A stretch of DNA of 5,871 bases, taken from the IMG/VR virus record IMGVR_UViG_2534682252_000030; one strand, given 5' to 3'. Below are positions 1-5,871 of this stretch, piece after piece (position 1 is the first letter of the stretch; each line of letters opens with the position of its first letter). Both the position numbers and the translations under genes were made by a program. The stretch comes from a virus. Its lineage: Duplodnaviria > Heunggongvirae > Uroviricota > Caudoviricetes. The notes under the pieces were generated by a model, which saw only the letters and a list, made by a program, of their open reading frames with translations, was not told the DNA's origin and ran no database searches.

Positions 1-461
1 GATCATCGCTTCAGTTCCTGTATCAGCAGAGTCAGGAGCTTTTCGCTGACATTGCCATTGAAGCGGAGCGTCCCGTGCCGGAACGTTACCTCACAGCTGA
101 TACTGAGGGTTTCCGGGTCCTCTGCGAGCGATTCTGGCTGTTCGGCAGCTGCGTCGAGAGTCACAGGAAGTAGCTGGGGGCTCTCTGAAGAAGGTAATAG
201 CAGCTTTCCCTCGCGCCATTGTTGTCGCCATTTGAACAACAGATTGGCGTTAATGCCATTTTCAAGAGCAAGTTTTGAGATGGATATCCCGGGTTCACAG
301 GAGGCAGCAACGAGCTGCTGTTTAAATTCGGGAGGATAATTAGGGCAGCCTTTTCGCCTGCCGGGAGTCACATTTTTCTGCATATCTGATACTTTGGTTC
401 CCACTACTTATTTGGTGGACACCACTTTGTCTAATTCGTCAGATTCTGACCAGACGGTTCA
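1..461 (-). mobile_element. Inner end of an IS66-family-like insertion sequence; element continues past window start, exact terminus not resolvable (between 384 and 461)
   Basis: tnpA-like ORF at 3-383 replaces the expected large-terminase gene directly after a truncated Nu1-like ORF. The minus-strand sequence at the junction begins TGAACCG, and its TGA is the stop codon of the truncated ORF. No canonical IS66 GTAAGCG-type end was seen and the other end is outside the window. Confidence 0.4.
3..383 (-). CDS. IS66-family TnpA-like (orf1) accessory transposase protein; ATG at 383 preferred over the GTG at 404 used by the ORF track
   Basis: Translation MQKNVTPGRRKGCPNYPPEFKQQLVAASCEPGISISKLALENGINANLLFKWRQQW has the HTH pattern of IS orfA proteins. 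The C-terminus CEVTFRHGTLRFNGNVSEKLLTLLIQELKR resembles the conserved C-terminal block of IS66 TnpA as I recall it. No obvious Shine-Dalgarno sequence. Confidence 0.55.
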   Translation of the reverse strand: MQKNVTPGRRKGCPNYPPEFKQQLVAASCEPGISISKLALENGINANLLFKWRQQWREGKLLLPSSESPQLLPVTLDAAAEQPESLAEDPETLSISCEVTFRHGTLRFNGNVSEKLLTLLIQELKR

Positions 462-734
462 GGCTGTACGCTTTTTTAACTGCTGTGTAACAGCCTGTTC
501 TGCTGTCAGTTCCCATCTGGCAATAAGCAATTTCTCCTCATAGTCGTCTTCGCTATCGCCATCAGGCACATCGTTTTTACTTCTCCTCAGATACGATATG
601 TAAAAATCGCGCCAGGCATCCAGATCCAGTTGCCCTCGCTTATTCGATATCGGGGCACCCGGCAATTTCTGCAATCTGCGAAGCTGGCGATCGGTCAGAC
701 TTAAATGCCTGGCAACTTCAGTCTGCGTAGCCAC
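459..734 (-). CDS. Terminase small subunit, Nu1-like, N-terminal ~91 codons only (truncated; likely pseudogene)
   Basis: Starts about 195 bp from cosN, as lambda nu1 does. Has an N-terminal HTH-like segment (VARHLSLTDRQLRRLQ) and a C-terminal stretch ELTAEQAVTQQLKK resembling lambda Nu1 RLTRAQADAQELKN near residue 90-100. GTG start preceded by GAGGTGAGGA. Lambda Nu1 is 181 aa; this ORF stops at the IS junction. Confidence 0.55.
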   Translation of the reverse strand: MATQTEVARHLSLTDRQLRRLQKLPGAPISNKRGQLDLDAWRDFYISYLRRSKNDVPDGDSEDDYEEKLLIARWELTAEQAVTQQLKKRTA

Positions 735-774
735 TCCTCACCTCGCAAAAACTCTCACCTCACAATCACAACAA

Positions 775-880
775 AACCGGTCATGTCCGGTTTACATGTC
801 TGTTTTTTGTTCATGTCCGGTTCACAGAAGACCTGTTTTTATATTTTTCATATAGTTAACTTGAAGAGAAACCGGACATG
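775..880. repeat. cosB-like terminase-binding repeat set: 11-mer AACCGGACATG or its complement at 782-792, 812-822 and inverted at 870-880, plus a 1-mismatch copy at 775-785; AT-rich spacer 823-868 is a possible IHF/bending site
   Basis: Three exact copies of CATGTCCGGTT / AACCGGACATG lie between cosN and the Nu1-like start, two in one orientation and one inverted, with an AT-rich segment between. This mirrors the R3-I1-R2-R1 layout of lambda cosB but with a different sequence. Confidence 0.5.
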
Positions 881-917
881 GATCCCGGAAAATTTTCATA
901 AATAGCGAAAACCCGCG

Positions 918-929
918 AGGTCGCCGCCC
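918..929 (-). other. cosN: 12-nt cohesive-end sequence GGGCGGCGACCT (minus strand), lambda-type
   Basis: Minus strand 929 to 885 reads GGGCGGCGACCTCGCGGGTTTTCGCTATTTATGAAAATTTTCCGG, matching the lambda left end as I remember it. The other side (930-975) matches the lambda right end ...TGATAATAATTATCATTT.GCGGGTCCTTTCCGGCGATCCGACAGGTTACG. Confidence 0.85.
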
Positions 930-980
930 CGTAACCTGTCGGATCGCCGGAAAGGACCCGCAAAATGATAATAATTATCA
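930..980 (-). other. cosQ-side segment (lambda right-end-like sequence adjoining cosN)
   Basis: Reverse complement of 930-975 matches the lambda right-terminal sequence from memory. Confidence 0.6.
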
Positions 981-1128
981 TCTACATGTCACAACGTGCA
1001 TCTACGCCATCAAACCACGTCAAATAATTAATTATGACGCAGGTATCGTATTAATTGATCTGCATCAACTTAACGTAAAAACAACTTCAGACAATACAAA
1101 TCAGCGACACTGAATACGGGGCAACCTC

Positions 1129-1353
1129 ATGTCAACGAAGAACAGAACCCGCAGAACAACAACCCGCAACATCCGCTTTCCTAACCAAATGATTGAACAA
1201 ATTAACATCGCTCTTGATCAGAAAGGTTCAGGTAATTTTTCAGCGTGGGTTATTGAAGCCTGCAGAAGAAGATTAATTAATGAAAAACATGCTCAATTTG
1301 TACCCAACAAAGACAAACACGACCAGAGCACCTGTTCAGACAGGTTTACTTAA
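1129..1353 (+). CDS. Small ribbon-helix-helix-like DNA-binding protein, YlcI/YnfO (DUF3950)-like prophage protein, 74 aa
   Basis: Complete ORF with ATG. RNIRFPNQMIEQINIALDQ...NFSAWVIEACRRRL fits a beta-strand/helix/helix Arc-MetJ pattern. The N-terminus MSTKNRTRRTTTRNIRFPNQMIEQINIAL matches my recollection of the K-12 DLP12/Qin YlcI/YnfO proteins. Followed by an intrinsic terminator. Confidence 0.55.
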   Translation: MSTKNRTRRTTTRNIRFPNQMIEQINIALDQKGSGNFSAWVIEACRRRLINEKHAQFVPNKDKHDQSTCSDRFT

Positions 1354-1372
1354 ACGACTTATATATGACACA

Positions 1373-1397
1373 AAAAGCGACCACTAAAGTCGCTTTT
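1373..1397. terminator. Bidirectional rho-independent terminator between convergent genes
   Basis: Stem AAAAGCGAC (1373-1381), loop CACTAAA, stem GTCGCTTTT (1389-1397). A-run on one side and T-run on the other. Lies between the stop at 1353 (+) and the stop at 1435 (-). Confidence 0.7.
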
Positions 1398-1434
1398 TCT
1401 TATGGTAACAGGCAATAACGCTCACAGATATTTT

Positions 1435-1749
1435 TTAGCATTTTTTTGTACCGCGCGTTTCCGGACGTATTCTGTTCTCCTGTCCCTTTATATCGTCGGA
1501 ATACCCGCCGCTCTTCAAATCCCATTCCCAACTCAGAATGTAGTCTGTTGACCGCTTGTTTATTTCTGTCAGGTTCATCGGTGAAACCGGAGTCCGGCGC
1601 GCCTTACGCAAACACTCTGCTCGTTTCTGTGCCGCCACTTTTCTTTTCTGGTCATCACTTAGCTGTACCATCACTTTTGCCCATCGTTCAGCTGCTCTCC
1701 GGTACAGTCCTTTTTTCTCCAGACATTCTGCCAGGTGATCATGTAGCAT
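1435..1749 (-). CDS. PerC-family-like transcriptional activator (Pch-like), 104 aa; assignment by motif memory
   Basis: ATG at 1749 with GGAGG 7 nt upstream. N-terminal motif AECLEKKGLYRRAAERW resembles the conserved PerC-family block. Lysine/arginine-rich. Sits in the moron position between Rz and cos, behind a 460-bp AT-rich region. Confidence 0.45.
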   Translation of the reverse strand: MLHDHLAECLEKKGLYRRAAERWAKVMVQLSDDQKRKVAAQKRAECLRKARRTPVSPMNLTEINKRSTDYILSWEWDLKSGGYSDDIKGQENRIRPETRGTKKC

Positions 1750-2213
1750 AAGTGACCTCCGATTATCTACAGACTGCTATCCTGAATTTACCTTCCTTTA
1801 ATGAAATAACAATAAAAAATAAATCACAGAAAAACAACAAAACAACACACAAAAAAACCAAATAATAAACCCAAATAATCACCTTATTTTATTATTTTTT
1901 GAGAGAGCTATTACTGAACAAAAAACGCTGACTATATACTCAAAACCAAACAACTATTCTGCCAATCAGGTATAATGGCAACACAAGGAATTACCGTGTT
2001 TTTGCCTTCTCTGCCCATACAATACGGACATATACTTCATACTCTATTGTAATATTTCCATCCATGCGAACAACTTCATTTATCTGTAAATAATATTCAA
2101 AATATTTATCACAGAAATCGTTTTTGGCCATGAACTGAGCACACTATAAAGTCCGGAACTGACTCTTTGTTAAATTACCTTAACGTTACCAGTAACACCT
2201 TCATAACAAAACA

Positions 2214-2681
2214 TCACGGTATACACTGGGTACGGATATATTCCTGTGCTCCTTCCAGTTGCTTCTGCATTGCCATCAGCCGTTCTCTGAGGATGAAATA
2301 ATCCCGTTCAGCGGCTTCTGCCAGTCGGGGACCGGTTGCATTATCCACGCCGGAGGTGATGGGGGCTTTACGCAAGGAGCCTGGACAGTTGGCGTTGATG
2401 CGCAGGCGCTTACGACCAGCGGCAACATCAGCACGCAGAGTTTCATTTTCAGCTCTCGCATCGGCTAATTCCCTCGAGTATCTGGCATCAAGTGCAGCGA
2501 CATCACGCTGGCGTACCTGCATATCAGTAATTGTCACGTTCGCCAGCTTCAGCTCACTGGCTTTTTTATCGCGTTGCGCTTTGTAGGTAATGGCGTTATC
2601 GCGGTAATGATTCAGCCCCAGACTAAGCACACCACAGGCTACCAGCAGGACAATAATCACCACACACAGAACACGGTTCAT
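2214..2681 (-). CDS. Rz: Rz i-spanin (inner-membrane spanin subunit), 155 aa
   Basis: MNRVL...[45 protein letters not shown]...[20 protein letters not shown] aligns along its length with lambda Rz. N-terminal TM segment present. Confidence 0.9.
2276..2461 (-). CDS. Rz1: Rz1 o-spanin lipoprotein, embedded in the +1 frame of Rz
   Basis: [20 protein letters not shown]...[32 protein letters not shown] matches lambda Rz1, including the lipobox (VVSAC) and proline-rich core. True start may be the internal Met at about 2446. Confidence 0.85.
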
Positions 2682-2688
2682 ATCCCCC

Positions 2689-2820
2689 TCACCCCACCAG
2701 CCATGACAAAGTTAAGACGCGCCAGGCAGTGGAAAAGCAAATAGCAACCAGCATTAGTGAAAATGAAATGCCGACGATTACACAGAGGATCTTCGCCAGC
2801 GTTATGAGCTTGTCTGACAT
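2689..2820 (-). CDS. Small hydrophobic membrane protein, 43 aa, unknown function
   Basis: ATG at 2820 preceded by AGAGGA. Translation [43 protein letters not shown] is almost entirely a TM helix. Its TGA stop overlaps the Shine-Dalgarno of Rz. It is in the same frame as the upstream 60-aa ORF, separated only by TGA plus 12 nt. Confidence 0.45.
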
Positions 2821-2832
2821 GCTTAATCCTCT

Positions 2833-3015
2833 TCACGATTTCAACGCAATGACCAGTTTTGCCAGCCCATACAGCATCGGAGACACAGCAATACCGACCG
2901 CCACCCACTTAATAGCAAAAGCCAGCGCTCTGCTGACGTCATCAGTTACAGGCGCTTTCAGTTCAAGGCCGTTTTTCATAGTCAATCTCAACAGAATTCG
3001 TTTATACTTTCCCAT
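2833..3015 (-). CDS. Small tail-anchored membrane protein, 60 aa, unknown function
   Basis: ATG at 3015 with AGGGAG 5 nt upstream. MGKYKRILLRLTMKNGLELKAPVTDDVSRALAFAIKWVAVGIAVSPMLYGLAKLVIALKS has a basic N-terminus and a C-terminal TM helix. The 86-aa form in the ORF track starts at a GTG inside a terminator hairpin and is less likely. Confidence 0.45.
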   Translation of the reverse strand: MGKYKRILLRLTMKNGLELKAPVTDDVSRALAFAIKWVAVGIAVSPMLYGLAKLVIALKS

Positions 3016-3049
3016 GTTCTCCCTTGCCTTACTCAAGGTCAGAAACACA

Positions 3050-3080
3050 AAACCCCGTTTGCGGCCAACAAACGGGGTTT
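3050..3080. terminator. Intrinsic terminator hairpin between the endolysin gene and the small membrane-protein ORFs (bidirectional in form)
   Basis: Perfect 12-bp stem AAACCCCGTTTG (3050-3061) / CAAACGGGGTTT (3069-3080) with loop CGGCCAA. T-rich tract follows on both strands. Confidence 0.7.
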
Positions 3081-3170
3081 TACTTTTATTCACTTAGTTT
3101 TTGCCAGTTCGCAGGATTTCGTGTTATCCGCCAGTGTGAGCAAACCGCATTTTTCAGCAAAATATTCTGC

Positions 3171-3704
3171 TTATCTGTCAATTCCCCAGCACGCCAGCGC
3201 GCTCTCCTGGTCACGCCGTGAAACCTGACCGTAGCAGTTGTTTGAGCGAATACGGCAGTCTCTGCCACCGTCCTTAATCCACCAGCGAATCGCCTCACAC
3301 GCTCCCCTGCGATCACCTGCATTAATTCGTCTGTAAAACGTCGACGGGAAACACTTACCGGGACCAATGTTGTACGGACAGAATGACGCGATCCCCGCTT
3401 TCTGGGGTTCGGTCAGCGGTACTTTAATATTGCGCTCCACCCACTCCAGCGCCTTATCACGTTCAATGGCGTTAACCTGGTCGCATTTTTCCTTCGACAA
3501 CTTCATGCCCGGAACGACAGGTTTACCATCCACCAGGATGGCACCGCGGCAGATGGTCCAGATACCCGCACCATCACGGTATGCCGTGGTGTGGTTACCT
3601 TCTTTTTCGTCAAGAAACTGGTCGAGGATTTCAGGCGCAGACGCCCCTGCACCAATCAGCGCCAGAACGGCAGCCGACAGGCCGTATCTGATTTTTGCGT
3701 TCAT
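3171..3704 (-). CDS. R: Phage lysozyme (GH24, T4-lysozyme-like) with N-terminal signal-anchor-release-type segment; RrrQ-like, 177 aa
   Basis: Intact ORF. N-terminal weakly hydrophobic Gly/Ala-rich segment YGLSAAVLALIGAGASA. Catalytic E-x8-D-x5-T motif in EGNHTTAYRDGAGIWT. Close to my recollection of the K-12 Qin prophage lysozyme. Confidence 0.85.
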   Translation of the reverse strand: MNAKIRYGLSAAVLALIGAGASAPEILDQFLDEKEGNHTTAYRDGAGIWTICRGAILVDGKPVVPGMKLSKEKCDQVNAIERDKALEWVERNIKVPLTEPQKAGIASFCPYNIGPGKCFPSTFYRRINAGDRRGACEAIRWWIKDGGRDCRIRSNNCYGQVSRRDQESALACWGIDR

Positions 3705-3754
3705 GGATATTTATCAGGGTTTATCGATTTCAAATCCCTGGATATGTTAAGTCT

Positions 3755-4098
3755 TCAGGCCAGCGGTGGAGTCTTCAGAGAACCCGTAATTATTCCCGGT
3801 AGTTTTCCTCTGTAGGTTATCAACACATCCTGCGCCTCTAAAATTACGGGACGCTTTTCCGGTAACGGACCATCCCCTTCACATAACCCGGCAGCAACAT
3901 CCATGAAAAACTGCTTCGCCTGCTTTTTCGCCTCAGCTTCGTAAAACTCCAGCGTGGCACCTTCAGTACGGTCAAGACTAATCGCCACATCTGGCAACAA
4001 CAGTGACGGATACCCACCAATTTCCGGTGCCACAGTAACAGTAATCTTATCCGGGTAATTATTTATCCCTTTAACACCCAGTTCGTATTTTTCTTCAT
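3755..4098 (-). pseudogene. YdfR-like (DUF1327-like) small protein gene between holin and endolysin, disrupted by an apparent 1-nt deletion in an A5 run
   Basis: ATG at 4098 with GGGGGGAG 7 nt upstream opens MKKNTNWVLKG then stops. One extra A in the A-run (4088-4092) would join it to the long open frame MKKKYELGVKGINNYPDKITVTVAPEIGGYPSLLLPD...TPPLA ending at 3755. The track ORF 3755-4033 is the GTG-initiated tail of that frame. Family name is from memory of Qin gene order (essQ-ydfR-rrrQ). Confidence 0.45.
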
Positions 4099-4102
4099 CG
4101 CT

Positions 4103-4306
4103 TTACTCCCCCCGCGCCGCCTTACGACGGTCCTCTCTGATTTTGAAATACAGGTTAGTCAGATACGTCAGCAGGCCAAACAGCAGACTCCCAGCACACC
4201 GATTGCCACCCACTGGACGGAGAGACTTTGTCCAGCAGCTGCAGTAACCAGTATCCCGTCCCACCGCTGACGTGGTGTATGACACACCTGTTGTGATTTT
4301 TTCCAT
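4103..4306 (-). pseudogene. S: Class II pinholin (S21 / EssD-like) gene carrying three apparent single-nucleotide deletions
   Basis: The annotated frame gives [16 protein letters not shown]...[28 protein letters not shown], with a holin-like N- and C-terminus but a scrambled middle. The holin-like middle appears in the other two frames: [14 protein letters not shown], then QWVAIGVLG. Frame switches fall near 4260-4267, 4215-4218 and 4190-4192, each in a G or C run. Confidence 0.7.
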
Positions 4307-4351
4307 CTGATGTATGTCTCCGTCACCGCCGACAGAAAATGAAAGTAAAGG

Positions 4352-4386
4352 AAAACAAAAAGCCGCCAGTGTCGCCCACTGACGGC
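4352..4386 (-). terminator. tR'-like intrinsic terminator upstream of the holin gene (site expected for Q-dependent antitermination)
   Basis: On the minus strand: 10-bp stem GCCGTCAGTG / CACTGGCGGC (one G-U pair), loop GGCGA, then TTTTTGTTTTCC. Lies 46 bp upstream of the holin ATG. Confidence 0.6.
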
Positions 4387-4464
4387 CAACGCCGGGAGCC
4401 GTGATTATGGCATTCAGGCTCTGCTAAAAATGCCAGATAACATTCCGGCTCCCCCCCCTGATTC

Positions 4465-4493
4465 AGGTTATAAATGACACAATATCTTGACAA
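4465..4493 (-). promoter_or_regulatory. Candidate late promoter (pR'-like): -35 TTGTCA, 17-bp spacer, -10 TAACCT on the minus strand
   Basis: Position is right relative to the tR'-like terminator and holin gene, and the -10 hexamer fits TAnnnT. The motif match is weak and no Q-binding site can be defined by eye. Confidence 0.25.
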
Positions 4494-4568
4494 CACCCAT
4501 CACTGTCTGTCAGAAAATGTACTGCCAGATATAAGTATCATGTGAAACCCAACTATCCTTCTTAGCCA

Positions 4569-4571
4569 GTA
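4569..4571. repeat. Target-site duplication GTA (left copy) of the IS3-family element
   Basis: GTA directly flanks both ends of the element (4569-4571 and 5645-5647). IS3-family elements make 3-bp duplications. Confidence 0.7.
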
Positions 4572-4596
4572 TGAACCGCCCCGGAAATCCTGGAGA
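4572..4596 (+). repeat. IS left inverted repeat (IRL)
   Basis: TGAACCGCCCCGGAAATCCTGGAGA; matches the reverse complement of the right end at 22/25 positions. Confidence 0.8.
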
Positions 4597-4625
4597 CTAA
4601 ACTCCCTGAGAAAGAGGTAAACAGG

Positions 4626-4952
4626 ATGACTAAAAATACTCGTTTTTCCCCCGAAGTCCGTCAGCGGGCGATTCGTATGGTTCTGGAAAGTCAGGATGAA
4701 TATGACTCACAGTGGGCGGCAATTTGTTCCATTGCCCCAAAGATTGGCTGTACGCCGGAGACTCTGCGTGTCTGGGTTCGCCAGCATGAGCGGGATACCG
4801 GGGGCGGTGATGGTGGGCTCACCAGCGCTGAACGTCAGCGTCTGAAAGAGCTGGAACGTGAAAATCGTGAACTGCGCCGCAGTAACGATATCCTTCGCCA
4901 GGCTTCCGCTTATTTTGCGAAGGCGGAGTTCGACCGCCTCTGGAAAAAATGA
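4626..4952 (+). CDS. IS3-family transposase OrfA (HTH / leucine-zipper DNA-binding component), 108 aa
   Basis: [22 protein letters not shown]...[34 protein letters not shown] is a typical IS629-group OrfA. SD-like GAGG upstream. Confidence 0.85.
4943..4949 (+). other. Candidate -1 programmed frameshift site (A-run) at the orfA/orfB overlap
   Basis: A6 run 4944-4949 directly before the orfA stop TGA (4950-4952), with orfB in the -1 frame starting ATGATG at 4949. IS3-family transposases are normally made as an OrfAB fusion by -1 frameshifting on an A-rich heptamer. Confidence 0.5.
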
Positions 4953-5602
4953 TGCCACTGCTGGATAAGCTGCGTGAGCAGTACGGGGTCGGACCGGTAT
5001 GCAGCGAACTGCATATTGCCCCGTCAACGTATTACCATTGTCAGCAACAGCGACATCATCCGGATAAACGCAGTGCCCGTGCGCAGCACGACGACTGGCT
5101 GAAGAGAGAGATACAGCGCGTATACGATGAAAATCATCAGGTGTACGGTGTGCGTAAAGTCTGGCGTCAGTTGTTACGGGAAGGAATCAGGGTGGCCAGA
5201 TGTACAGTGGCACGTCTCATGGCGGTTATGGGACTTGCCGGTGTTCTCCGGGGTAAATGGGCCCGTCGTCCGTCTGGCACCATCCATCACAGCGATAAAG
5301 GCTCTCAGTATGTGTCACTGGCCTATACGGAGCGACTAAAAGAAGCCGGATTACTGGCATCAACAGGGAGTACAGGCGACTCGTATGACAACGCGATGGC
5401 TGAGAGCATCAATGGTCTTTACAAAGCGGAGGTAATACACCGTAAGAGCTGGAAAAACCGTGCAGAAGTGGAACTGGCCACACTAACGTGGGTGGACTGG
5501 TATAACAATCGACGATTGCTGGGAAGGCTGGGCCATACTCCTCCGGCAGAAGCAGAAAAAGCTTATTATGCTTCCATCGGAAACGATGATCTGGCAGCCT
5601 GA
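4949..5602 (+). CDS. IS3-family transposase OrfB (DDE catalytic component) with an in-frame internal deletion of about 75-80 codons; probably catalytically dead
   Basis: 217 aa versus roughly 290 aa for IS3-family OrfB. Only about 11 residues separate GVLRGK from HHSDKGSQY (second catalytic Asp), where full-length proteins carry about 80 residues including the first Asp (D.TY motif). Downstream [15 protein letters not shown] block is intact. Junction near 5255-5260. Confidence 0.75.
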
Positions 5603-5619
5603 GTTCACAGATAAAACAC

Positions 5620-5644
5620 TCTCCAGGAAACCCGGGGCGGTTCA
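5620..5644 (-). repeat. IS right inverted repeat (IRR)
   Basis: Reverse complement reads TGAACCGCCCCGGGTTTCCTGGAGA. Confidence 0.8.
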
Positions 5645-5647
5645 GTA
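5645..5647. repeat. Target-site duplication GTA (right copy)
   Basis: Identical to 4569-4571, immediately abutting the IS end. Confidence 0.7.
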
Positions 5648-5682
5648 CTTCTCCGACGAAAGTCAGTACTGGCTGTTTTTTT
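5648..5682 (+). terminator. Intrinsic terminator hairpin split by the IS insertion (left stem arm is at 4564-4571 plus 5648-5649)
   Basis: With the IS and one GTA copy removed the site reads AGCCAGTACT tctccgacgaaagtc AGTACTGGCT GTTTTTTT: a perfect 10-bp stem and a T7 tract on the plus strand. Confidence 0.45.
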
Positions 5683-5683
5683 A

Positions 5684-5871
5684 TTATGCTGCCGGTGCAT
5701 TTATCTCCAGCATCAGACTTTCTATCTCAACGCCATACGCTGCATTTTTTGTAACATCCGTCAGCGTCAGCGCATTCAGTCCCAGTGTCAGACTGTCTTT
5801 TATAACCTGGAATGCCGGGCCAGCCACTCCATTCAGTTTCGGAGTAACCATGGCACTGCCGGCGGTGAACA
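5684..5871 (-). CDS. 3' end of a gene running off the right edge (61 C-terminal codons), product unknown; sits where lambdoid phages carry the late-gene activator
   Basis: Open minus-strand frame from the window edge to TAA at 5684-5686: ...AMVTPKLNGVAGPAFQVIKDSLTLGLNALTLTDVTKNAAYGVEIESLMLEINAPAA. Not in the ORF track because it has no start in the window. I do not recognise a family. Confidence 0.35.
   Translation of the reverse strand, partial: FTAGSAMVTPKLNGVAGPAFQVIKDSLTLGLNALTLTDVTKNAAYGVEIESLMLEINAPAA

Follow-up and report, generated by a model that had tools for sequence, protein, structure and literature searches.

Gene content of the window

We analysed a 5,871-nucleotide stretch of viral DNA, hereafter the window, which Megablast identifies as lambdoid prophage DNA of E. 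coli O157:H7. Window positions 1-1164 are 99.9% identical to the Sakai prophage Sp4 and positions 472-5871 are 99.8% identical to the Sakai prophage Sp14. The forward direction of the phage corresponds to the minus strand of the window, and the main features in this direction are:

4572-5644: IS629/IS1203 copy
4306..4103, minus strand: holin gene
between the holin and lysozyme genes in this order, read on the minus strand: YdfR-family ORF
3704..3171, minus strand: lysozyme
2681..2214, minus strand: Rz/Rz1
1749..1435, minus strand: PerC-family regulator, pchC-like
1129..1353, plus strand: YlcI/DUF3950 gene, divergent
885..1128, minus strand: block aligning with the lambda right end and its first 45 bp (cosQ-cosN region)
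459..734, minus strand: nu1' ORF of 91 codons, GTG start, TGA at 461..459
1..471, minus strand: left 471 nt of ISEc8 (IS66 family), leaving the window at its left end

We are highly confident, jointly with the single-insertion explanation developed below, that the window represents the late-region, cos and nu1 boundary of a lambda-like prophage from E. coli O157:H7 (Sakai Sp4/Sp14 lineage). The interval from pchC to Rz (window 1750-2210) is non-coding, very AT-rich and rich in A-tracts, and its sole ORF is 46 aa long (2131..1991). A promoter and terminator scan of window 400-1450 returned counts at chance level, and two of its "terminators" are the cosB R repeats themselves.

A nu1 gene interrupted by ISEc8

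The original prediction, made from this sequence alone, was that a Nu1-like ORF stops after 91 codons at a TGA that is the first triplet of TGAACCGTCTGG (TGAACCG...), leading into an IS66-family tnpA. The ORF, its stop codon and the sequence after the stop are borne out. The accompanying claim that the gene ends at an IS junction is correct in that nu1 is broken by an IS, but the end of the IS is not at the TGA; the true boundary lies about 12 nt upstream of it. The parts of this region are:

734..474, minus strand: native nu1' codons 1-87, followed by IS-derived K-R-T-A and the TGA (461..459)
561..734, minus strand: predicted winged helix-turn-helix DNA-binding domain, nu1' codons 1-58, kept in the truncated product
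472..479, minus strand: left 8-bp target copy TTAAAAAA, nu1 nt 256-263
471..~450, minus strand: ISEc8 left terminal repeat, damaged in comparison with two other ISEc8 copies (L011, L012)
383..3 (RefSeq) or 404..3 (from the first GTG), minus strand: tnpA, Pfam HTH_Tnp_1, 1.8e-12
6..1, minus strand: first bases of tnpB

The intact reference gene is Sakai Sp14 ECs_2736, which has 169 codons. A base-by-base comparison found nu1' to be identical to ECs_2736 through nt 263 (87 codons, window 472) and divergent thereafter, with codons 88-91 (K-R-T-A) and the stop encoded by the IS. The same break point is seen across the family, as homologues of about 167-184 aa from Escherichia, Klebsiella, Salmonella, Citrobacter and Enterobacter are colinear with nu1' up to K87 and diverge from it after that residue. 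The gene is thus truncated, as predicted, rather than a natural short protein. A 169-aa protein of 99.4% identity is present in the plaque-forming phages PhiR12_1 and PhiR12_2, and in both Sp14 and PhiR12_1 nu1 lies downstream of cos and overlaps terL. In the window, the nu1' start codon is 40 nt past R1.

Searches against protein families are in keeping with this picture. The full-length 169-aa product matches Pfam Phage_Nu1 (PF07471) over residues 49-150 with 67.9 bits, against a curated cutoff of 30 bits, and the 3' nu1 fragment found past the IS scores 50.3 bits. Taken alone, the 91-aa ORF had no match in Pfam at E<=0.01, but in PHROGs it belongs with the terminase small subunits of phrog_57 (2e-18). 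A PDB sequence search with the full-length protein gave no significant match. In strain 2571, RefSeq annotates nu1' as a pseudogene 'missing C-terminus' and flags both halves of nu1 as pseudogene fragments.

At 99.9% identity, the IS in the window corresponds to the annotated ISEc8 of Sakai Sp4, an element of 2,440 bp. RefSeq names its tnpA 'IS66-like element accessory protein TnpA', and in strain 2571 it annotates tnpA, tnpB and an 'IS66-like element ISEc8 family transposase'. The three-gene order tnpA-tnpB-transposase is complete in the identical element of Sakai, strain 2571 and EDL933. IS sequence, reading GCGTACAGCC, begins at window 471. The intact gene reads CAGCAG TTAAAAAA TGAGGTG at the insertion site, with TTAAAAAA occurring once. 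With a slash marking the boundary, the left junction of both the window and Sp4 is CAGCAGTTAAAAAA/GCGTAC, that is CAGCAG TTAAAAAA/GCGTACAGCCTGAACCG, and the right junction of Sakai Sp4 and strain 2571 is GCTTAC/TTAAAAAATGAGG, that is GCTGTACGCTTAC/TTAAAAAA TGAGGTG. An 8-bp target duplication, TTAAAAAA, therefore flanks the IS on both sides, although an A-run leaves its precise limit uncertain by 2 nt. The two other ISEc8 copies (L011 and L012) have target repeats of 8 bp, exact in one and matching at 7/8 bp in the other.

At the left ends of those two copies (L011 ~3019, L012 ~3016) the target repeat is followed by GTAAGCGTACAGCC. Compared with them, the left repeat in window 462-480 is missing 4 nt (GTAA, equivalently AAGT), including the terminal GT. 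Terminal inverted repeats starting GTAAGCG are consequently not found at both ends of the nu1 copy: the right repeat is undamaged, with GTAAGCGTACAGCG as its complementary-strand sequence, whereas the left reads GCGTACAGCC. By sequence, then, we assign the element to IS66/ISEc8 as a member with a damaged left end, and this damage may have left the copy in nu1 immobile. It also appears to have set the length of the ORF. With an intact IS left end the stop would be ...AAG TAA; the 4-nt loss adds three codons, to the TGA.

Predicted domains of the truncated product

The structural model of the full-length protein is of lower confidence (pLDDT 69). It has an acidic linker at residues 55-62, a long helix at 64-91 and further helices after it, and the best structural match to the N-terminal domain of Nu1' is RppC. 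Native residue 87 aligns to about residue 100 of lambda Nu1, and the region that aligns with lambda 101-177 is lost. In lambda TerS the central domain is responsible for oligomerisation and the C-terminal domain for TerL binding (PMC9026076). The ORF in the window is without both of these domains, the missing part being encoded 2.44 kb away, past the IS. The 5' fragment, consisting of 87 native and four IS-encoded residues, keeps the predicted winged-helix domain and the first long helix. The ORF is a gene fragment of a Phage_Nu1 family member and, by analogy with lambda, probably not a functional one, and we infer from what is known of the lambda TerS domains (PMC9026076) that the 91-aa fragment could not build a terminase holoenzyme.

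The fragment may nevertheless not be inert. If expressed from the late transcript, Nu1' could use its predicted cosB-binding domain to sit on R sites both in its own cos and in the identical cos of Sp14 type, where it would modulate or interfere with packaging by a sibling terminase. Pairing with full-length Nu1 is another possibility, in a manner resembling that of Rpp proteins with TerS. We consider such activity quite unlikely, a judgement made jointly with the recombination proposal presented below.

The homologues P0056, P0060, P0069 and P0083 have the C-terminal ~100 residues in common with this protein, while their N-terminal ~60 residues are unrelated (MxFLLNKSDMASSIGISVQAFDKWGVPPVERRG...). 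Such unrelated N-termini point to a modular exchange of the presumed cosB-recognition domain within the TerS family.

The cos site

The cos site had been predicted to be intact, and a cosQ-like heptamer, cosN and R-like repeats are all present:

953..959, minus strand: cosQ-like heptamer GGGTCCT, aligning to lambda 48473-48479
918..929, minus strand: 12-nt cosN cohesive end GGGCGGCGACCT, identical to lambda bp 1-12
869..880, plus-strand sequence: cosB R3-like AAACCGGACATG, bp 50-61 from the cohesive end
812..822, plus-strand sequence: cosB R2-like CATGTCCGGTT, inverted relative to R3, bp 108-118
774..793: cosB R1-like palindromic pair, AAACCGGTCATG overlapping CATGTCCGGTTT, bp 137-156 (repeat families D1, D3, I2 and I4)

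On the minus strand, window 1128..885 matches lambda 48304-48502 and then lambda bp 1-45 with near identity, and the GGGTCCT heptamer falls at lambda 48473-48479, which we take to be cosQ. From bp ~46 onward the sequence departs from that of lambda, and three to four R-like 11-12-mers follow cosN. The R3-like repeat compares with an R3 at bp 50-65 in lambda (PMC9026076). The active phage PhiR12_1 has these putative binding repeats without a single base change, substitutions being confined to the spacers. A cosB consensus scan that allowed at most one mismatch to the IHF consensus WATCAANNNNTTR found no match in the AT-rich R3-R2 spacer. The window does not differ from Sp14 at any position of 473-1423, nor from Sp4 within cos, and the cos site is identical in Sakai Sp4 and Sp14. 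In the phage collection only the PhiR12-series phages have the same cosB.

Sequence beyond the insertion sequence

The original prediction also noted that the large-terminase gene is absent from the window and took this to mean that the prophage had lost it. The first statement is accurate, because the window ends inside the IS, 471 nt into an element of 2.44 kb; the second does not hold for the relatives, as terL is present past the IS in three related records. A leftward extension had been proposed as a check, and when it was carried out in these relatives it recovered the other end of the IS, the TTAAAAAA repeat, the 3' end of nu1 and terL. In each of the three records followed through the IS, namely Sakai Sp4, strain 2571 and one from EDL933, the order is the IS, TTAAAAAA, the last 82 nu1 codons and terL. 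The annotation of Sakai Sp4 runs ECs_1101 (the 91-aa ORF), ISEc8, ECs_1105 ('terminase small subunit', whose start is the in-frame GTG of nu1 codon 90) and ECs_1106 ('terminase large subunit'). The genes for W, portal, protease, head and tail come next, and strain 2571 and the EDL933 record are arranged alike. In Sp4 the 2,155 nt past the IS are 100% identical to Sp14. A gene missing at a window edge that falls inside an IS is, as a caution, not evidence of deletion.

Among 5,426 complete E. coli genomes, the left junction is found in 289 and the right junction in 291, counting genomes in which the probe was covered over at least 80%. The terminase DNA past the IS in the relatives and the near-equal junction counts argue that the event was a simple insertion, and it appears to be fixed in the O157:H7 lineage. 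A single ISEc8 (2.44 kb) would have entered nu1 after codon 87 and duplicated its target TTAAAAAA, giving the full 2.44-kb element, then TTAAAAAATGAGGTG, then terL. Nothing else would have been deleted, with 82 nu1 codons, terL, W, portal and the other structural genes all lying after the IS. Overall, the explanation that one ISEc8 insertion split nu1, leaving cos and terL in place and a lesion complemented in trans by Sp14, is very probably correct, where the continuation past window position 1 in the window's own genome is inferred from its relatives.

Two other readings of the locus bear on this explanation. The 91-aa protein could be a natural full-length short member of its family; indeed, a PHROGs family of 91 positions and 'unknown function', phrog_7289, matches the ORF end to end (1e-61). 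Against this stand the IS origin of the last four residues and the stop, the longer homologues (about 167-184 aa) that are colinear with the ORF to K87, the missing nu1 codons found past the IS, in frame, after the target repeat, and the RefSeq annotation of both nu1 halves as pseudogene fragments. Junction analysis rules this reading out and we give it practically no chance of being right. Since the phrog_7289 profile itself contains the IS-encoded tail, the family is most likely an annotation artefact built from copies of the same truncated nu1' ORF, a caution that truncated ORFs have seeded a PHROGs family of 'unknown function'.

Alternatively, the IS could mark the end point of a deletion in the window's own genome, in which case terL and the structural genes would truly be gone. 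IS66 elements can cause adjacent deletions, the nu1 copy of ISEc8 has a damaged left end, and the window ends inside the IS with the terL side outside it. However, the 3' part of nu1 and terL follow the IS in 3/3 records read across it, the genome counts for the two junctions are nearly equal (289 vs 291), and the damaged end is the one adjoining the 5' part of nu1, which is kept. We therefore regard a deletion as very unlikely and favour the simple insertion.

Two further observations concern these related records. In strain 2571 (L003 16307-18222) the terL past the IS is annotated as frameshifted, with an additional G and a 14-nt deletion relative to Sakai, a change that may be an error of long-read sequencing or a second, genuine defect in packaging. 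A Sp4-type prophage region including nu1::ISEc8 is also found in NZ_CP124741.1 (L013, 'EDL933 plasmid unnamed2', 286,775 bp, labelled non-mobilisable), which probably represents chromosomal DNA wrongly assigned to a plasmid.

A join between Sp14-type and Sp4-type sequence

In the window, a lysis region of Sp14 type meets a nu1::ISEc8 of Sp4 type, which gives it the look of a recombinant with Sp14 on the left and Sp4 on the right. The same join occurs in four complete genomes (NCCP 13946, 122, 2571 and F6321) and in one draft contig (L009), which matches window 1-5075 and ends in repeats. A 45-mer spanning nu1::ISEc8 was found in five IMG/VR contigs, L009 among them. Sp4 and Sp14, which are oppositely oriented, share a stretch of ~690 bp (window 472-1164), and a crossover within it would yield the hybrid join. 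An inversion of >1,400 kb with its end points in Sp4 and Sp14 has been described in strain PA20 (PMC5256220).

Other features of the window are less readily placed. Its IS629/IS1203 copy, with an in-frame 237-bp deletion in orfB (junction 5257/5258), exactly matches Sakai Sp4's 'partial' IS1203 yet lies at the Sp14 site, where the best 25 of 296 complete genomes (query coverage of at least 80%) have a full-length 1,310-bp IS629. A search for the IS629 deletion junction linked to the Sp14-type flank found no exact-pattern match in genome or viral contigs, and either a chimeric assembly or gene conversion from one IS copy to another may account for the deleted IS629 at the Sp14 site. The window also carries six single-base indels when compared with Sakai Sp14 and strain 2571, at positions 4263, 4217, 4193, 4093, 1562 and 1449, which scramble holin residues ~17-40, shift the C-terminal third of PerC/pchC and remove the YdfR start. 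They have the appearance of errors in the source sequence; genuine changes of this kind would be expected to inactivate the holin and PchC. Together, the IS629 and indel oddities suggest a source assembly that is of lower quality or partly chimeric.

It could accordingly be argued that the Sp14/Sp4 join is itself an assembly chimera across the ~690-bp shared stretch, so that the cos in the window might adjoin an intact nu1 and the lesion would be real in the other prophage. The window is Sp14-like over 472-5871 (99.8%) and Sp4-like over 1-1164 (99.9%), its IS629 has the 237-bp deletion of the Sp4 copy yet occupies the Sp14 site, and the six indels, with their compensated frameshifts in holin and pchC, are typical of low-quality sequence. 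On the other side, four complete genomes and the draft contig L009 have the same join, and the Sp4-Sp14 inversion of strain PA20 provides a natural route to such hybrids (PMC5256220). We consider a chimeric join unlikely, and the quality of the source assembly leaves the nature of the nu1::ISEc8 lesion unaffected.

Recombination between Sp4 and Sp14 might also move the lesion from one prophage to the other, in which case the virulence-gene cargo of the packaging-defective element (the pchA or the pchC side) would differ by strain. Together with the fragment activity considered above, to which the same judgement applies, we see this as a long shot.

In Sakai Sp4 itself (L001 16443-19937, compared with window 1272-4569) the whole S-R-Rz-pchA cassette has the opposite orientation, both with respect to nu1 and in comparison with the window and Sp14. 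The deleted IS629 sits at one inversion breakpoint and an 'empty' IS629 target site adjoins the holin gene, which suggests that the Sp4 cassette arose by an IS629-associated inversion.

Probable packaging in trans

That a helper could package this prophage through its retained cos had been put forward as conceivable, and published work makes it plausible, because Sp4 DNA enters particles in spite of the IS insertion, the Sp14 terminase being the most likely agent (PMC2669165). Asadulghani et al. (2009) reported that Sp4 is the sole lambdoid prophage of Sakai without an intact terminase, its nu1 being disrupted by an IS insertion (ISEc8, Fig. S8), and that Sp4 and Sp14 have identical cos sites and Nu1 sequences (PMC2669165). 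They found that Sp4 DNA is amplified via regional replication from Sp5, excised and recovered in DNase-resistant particles, and concluded that it was "most likely" packaged by the Sp14 terminase (PMC2669165). As the nu1 and terL of Sp14 are identical in sequence, an Sp4-type lesion would be complemented in trans in the same cell.

Two parts of the original prediction fare less well here. An external helper phage, which it had invoked, is not needed because the same cell has an identical intact nu1-A pair in Sp14. The lambda-type helper it proposed would not be cognate: both cosB and the DNA-binding N-terminal domain of Nu1 differ from those of lambda, which makes an Sp14/PhiR12-type terminase the probable natural helper. 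Phage 21 had been named as the other helper type, and no record of that name was among the tblastn matches listed.

The presence of nu1::ISEc8 beside an intact cos is already known, having been reported in 2009 and annotated as pseudogene fragments in RefSeq, and the idea of helper-dependent cos packaging, although reasonable, is already published and supported (PMC2669165). A "defective" prophage that keeps cos can be mobilised by the terminase of a sibling prophage, which bears on how O157 virulence regulators such as pchA and pchC spread. The point about the sibling terminase was made and tested in 2009, so the window brings no new biology in this respect.

Comparison with known systems

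The closest known system is the nu1::ISEc8 of Sakai Sp4 (CP-933M in EDL933). The junction, target site, IS and cos are alike, window 1-1164 being 99.9% identical, and the conclusion drawn for Sp4 is similar, namely that a sibling's terminase rescues a prophage defective in packaging (PMC2669165). Unlike the window, which has an Sp14-type lysis cassette in forward orientation upstream of cos, Sakai Sp4 has a 90-96% identical cassette that is inverted. The element agrees with ISEc8 (IS66 family) in having its genes in the order tnpA-tnpB-transposase, a right end that reads ...GCTGTACGCTTAC and a target repeat 8 bp in length; it differs from the two other copies in that the left terminal repeat of the nu1 copy is 4 nt short and its terminal GT is gone.

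With lambda the locus shares the gene order cosQ-cosN-cosB-nu1-A, identical cosQ and cosN sequences and an R3-like repeat equidistant from the nick site. Over its C-terminal two-thirds the full-length protein shares 46% identity with residues 86-177 of lambda Nu1, and the N-terminal domain has the same winged-helix fold, as predicted here. In contrast, the N-terminal ~70 residues have no detectable sequence similarity to lambda Nu1, and the cosB R repeats read CATGTCCGGTT rather than the lambda sequence. By analogy with the lambda/21 system, the packaging specificity is expected to be different from that of lambda (PMC9026076).

The cos-type PICIs that carry Rpp offer another parallel, as they too keep cos and are packaged by the TerS/TerL of another phage (PMC9026076, PMC6739421). 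A PICI-like satellite is ruled out at this locus, as the related loci hold a full-size prophage and no rpp-like gene adjoins cos within the window. Whereas PICIs are satellites, the related complete loci are lambdoid prophages of ~50 kb with terL, portal, head and tail genes, and the dependence of the prophage would come from an accidental IS insertion rather than a dedicated hijacking protein. Finally, in contrast to the cos-type PICIs, the cosB of the prophage is the helper's own type and so no redirection of the terminase is needed.
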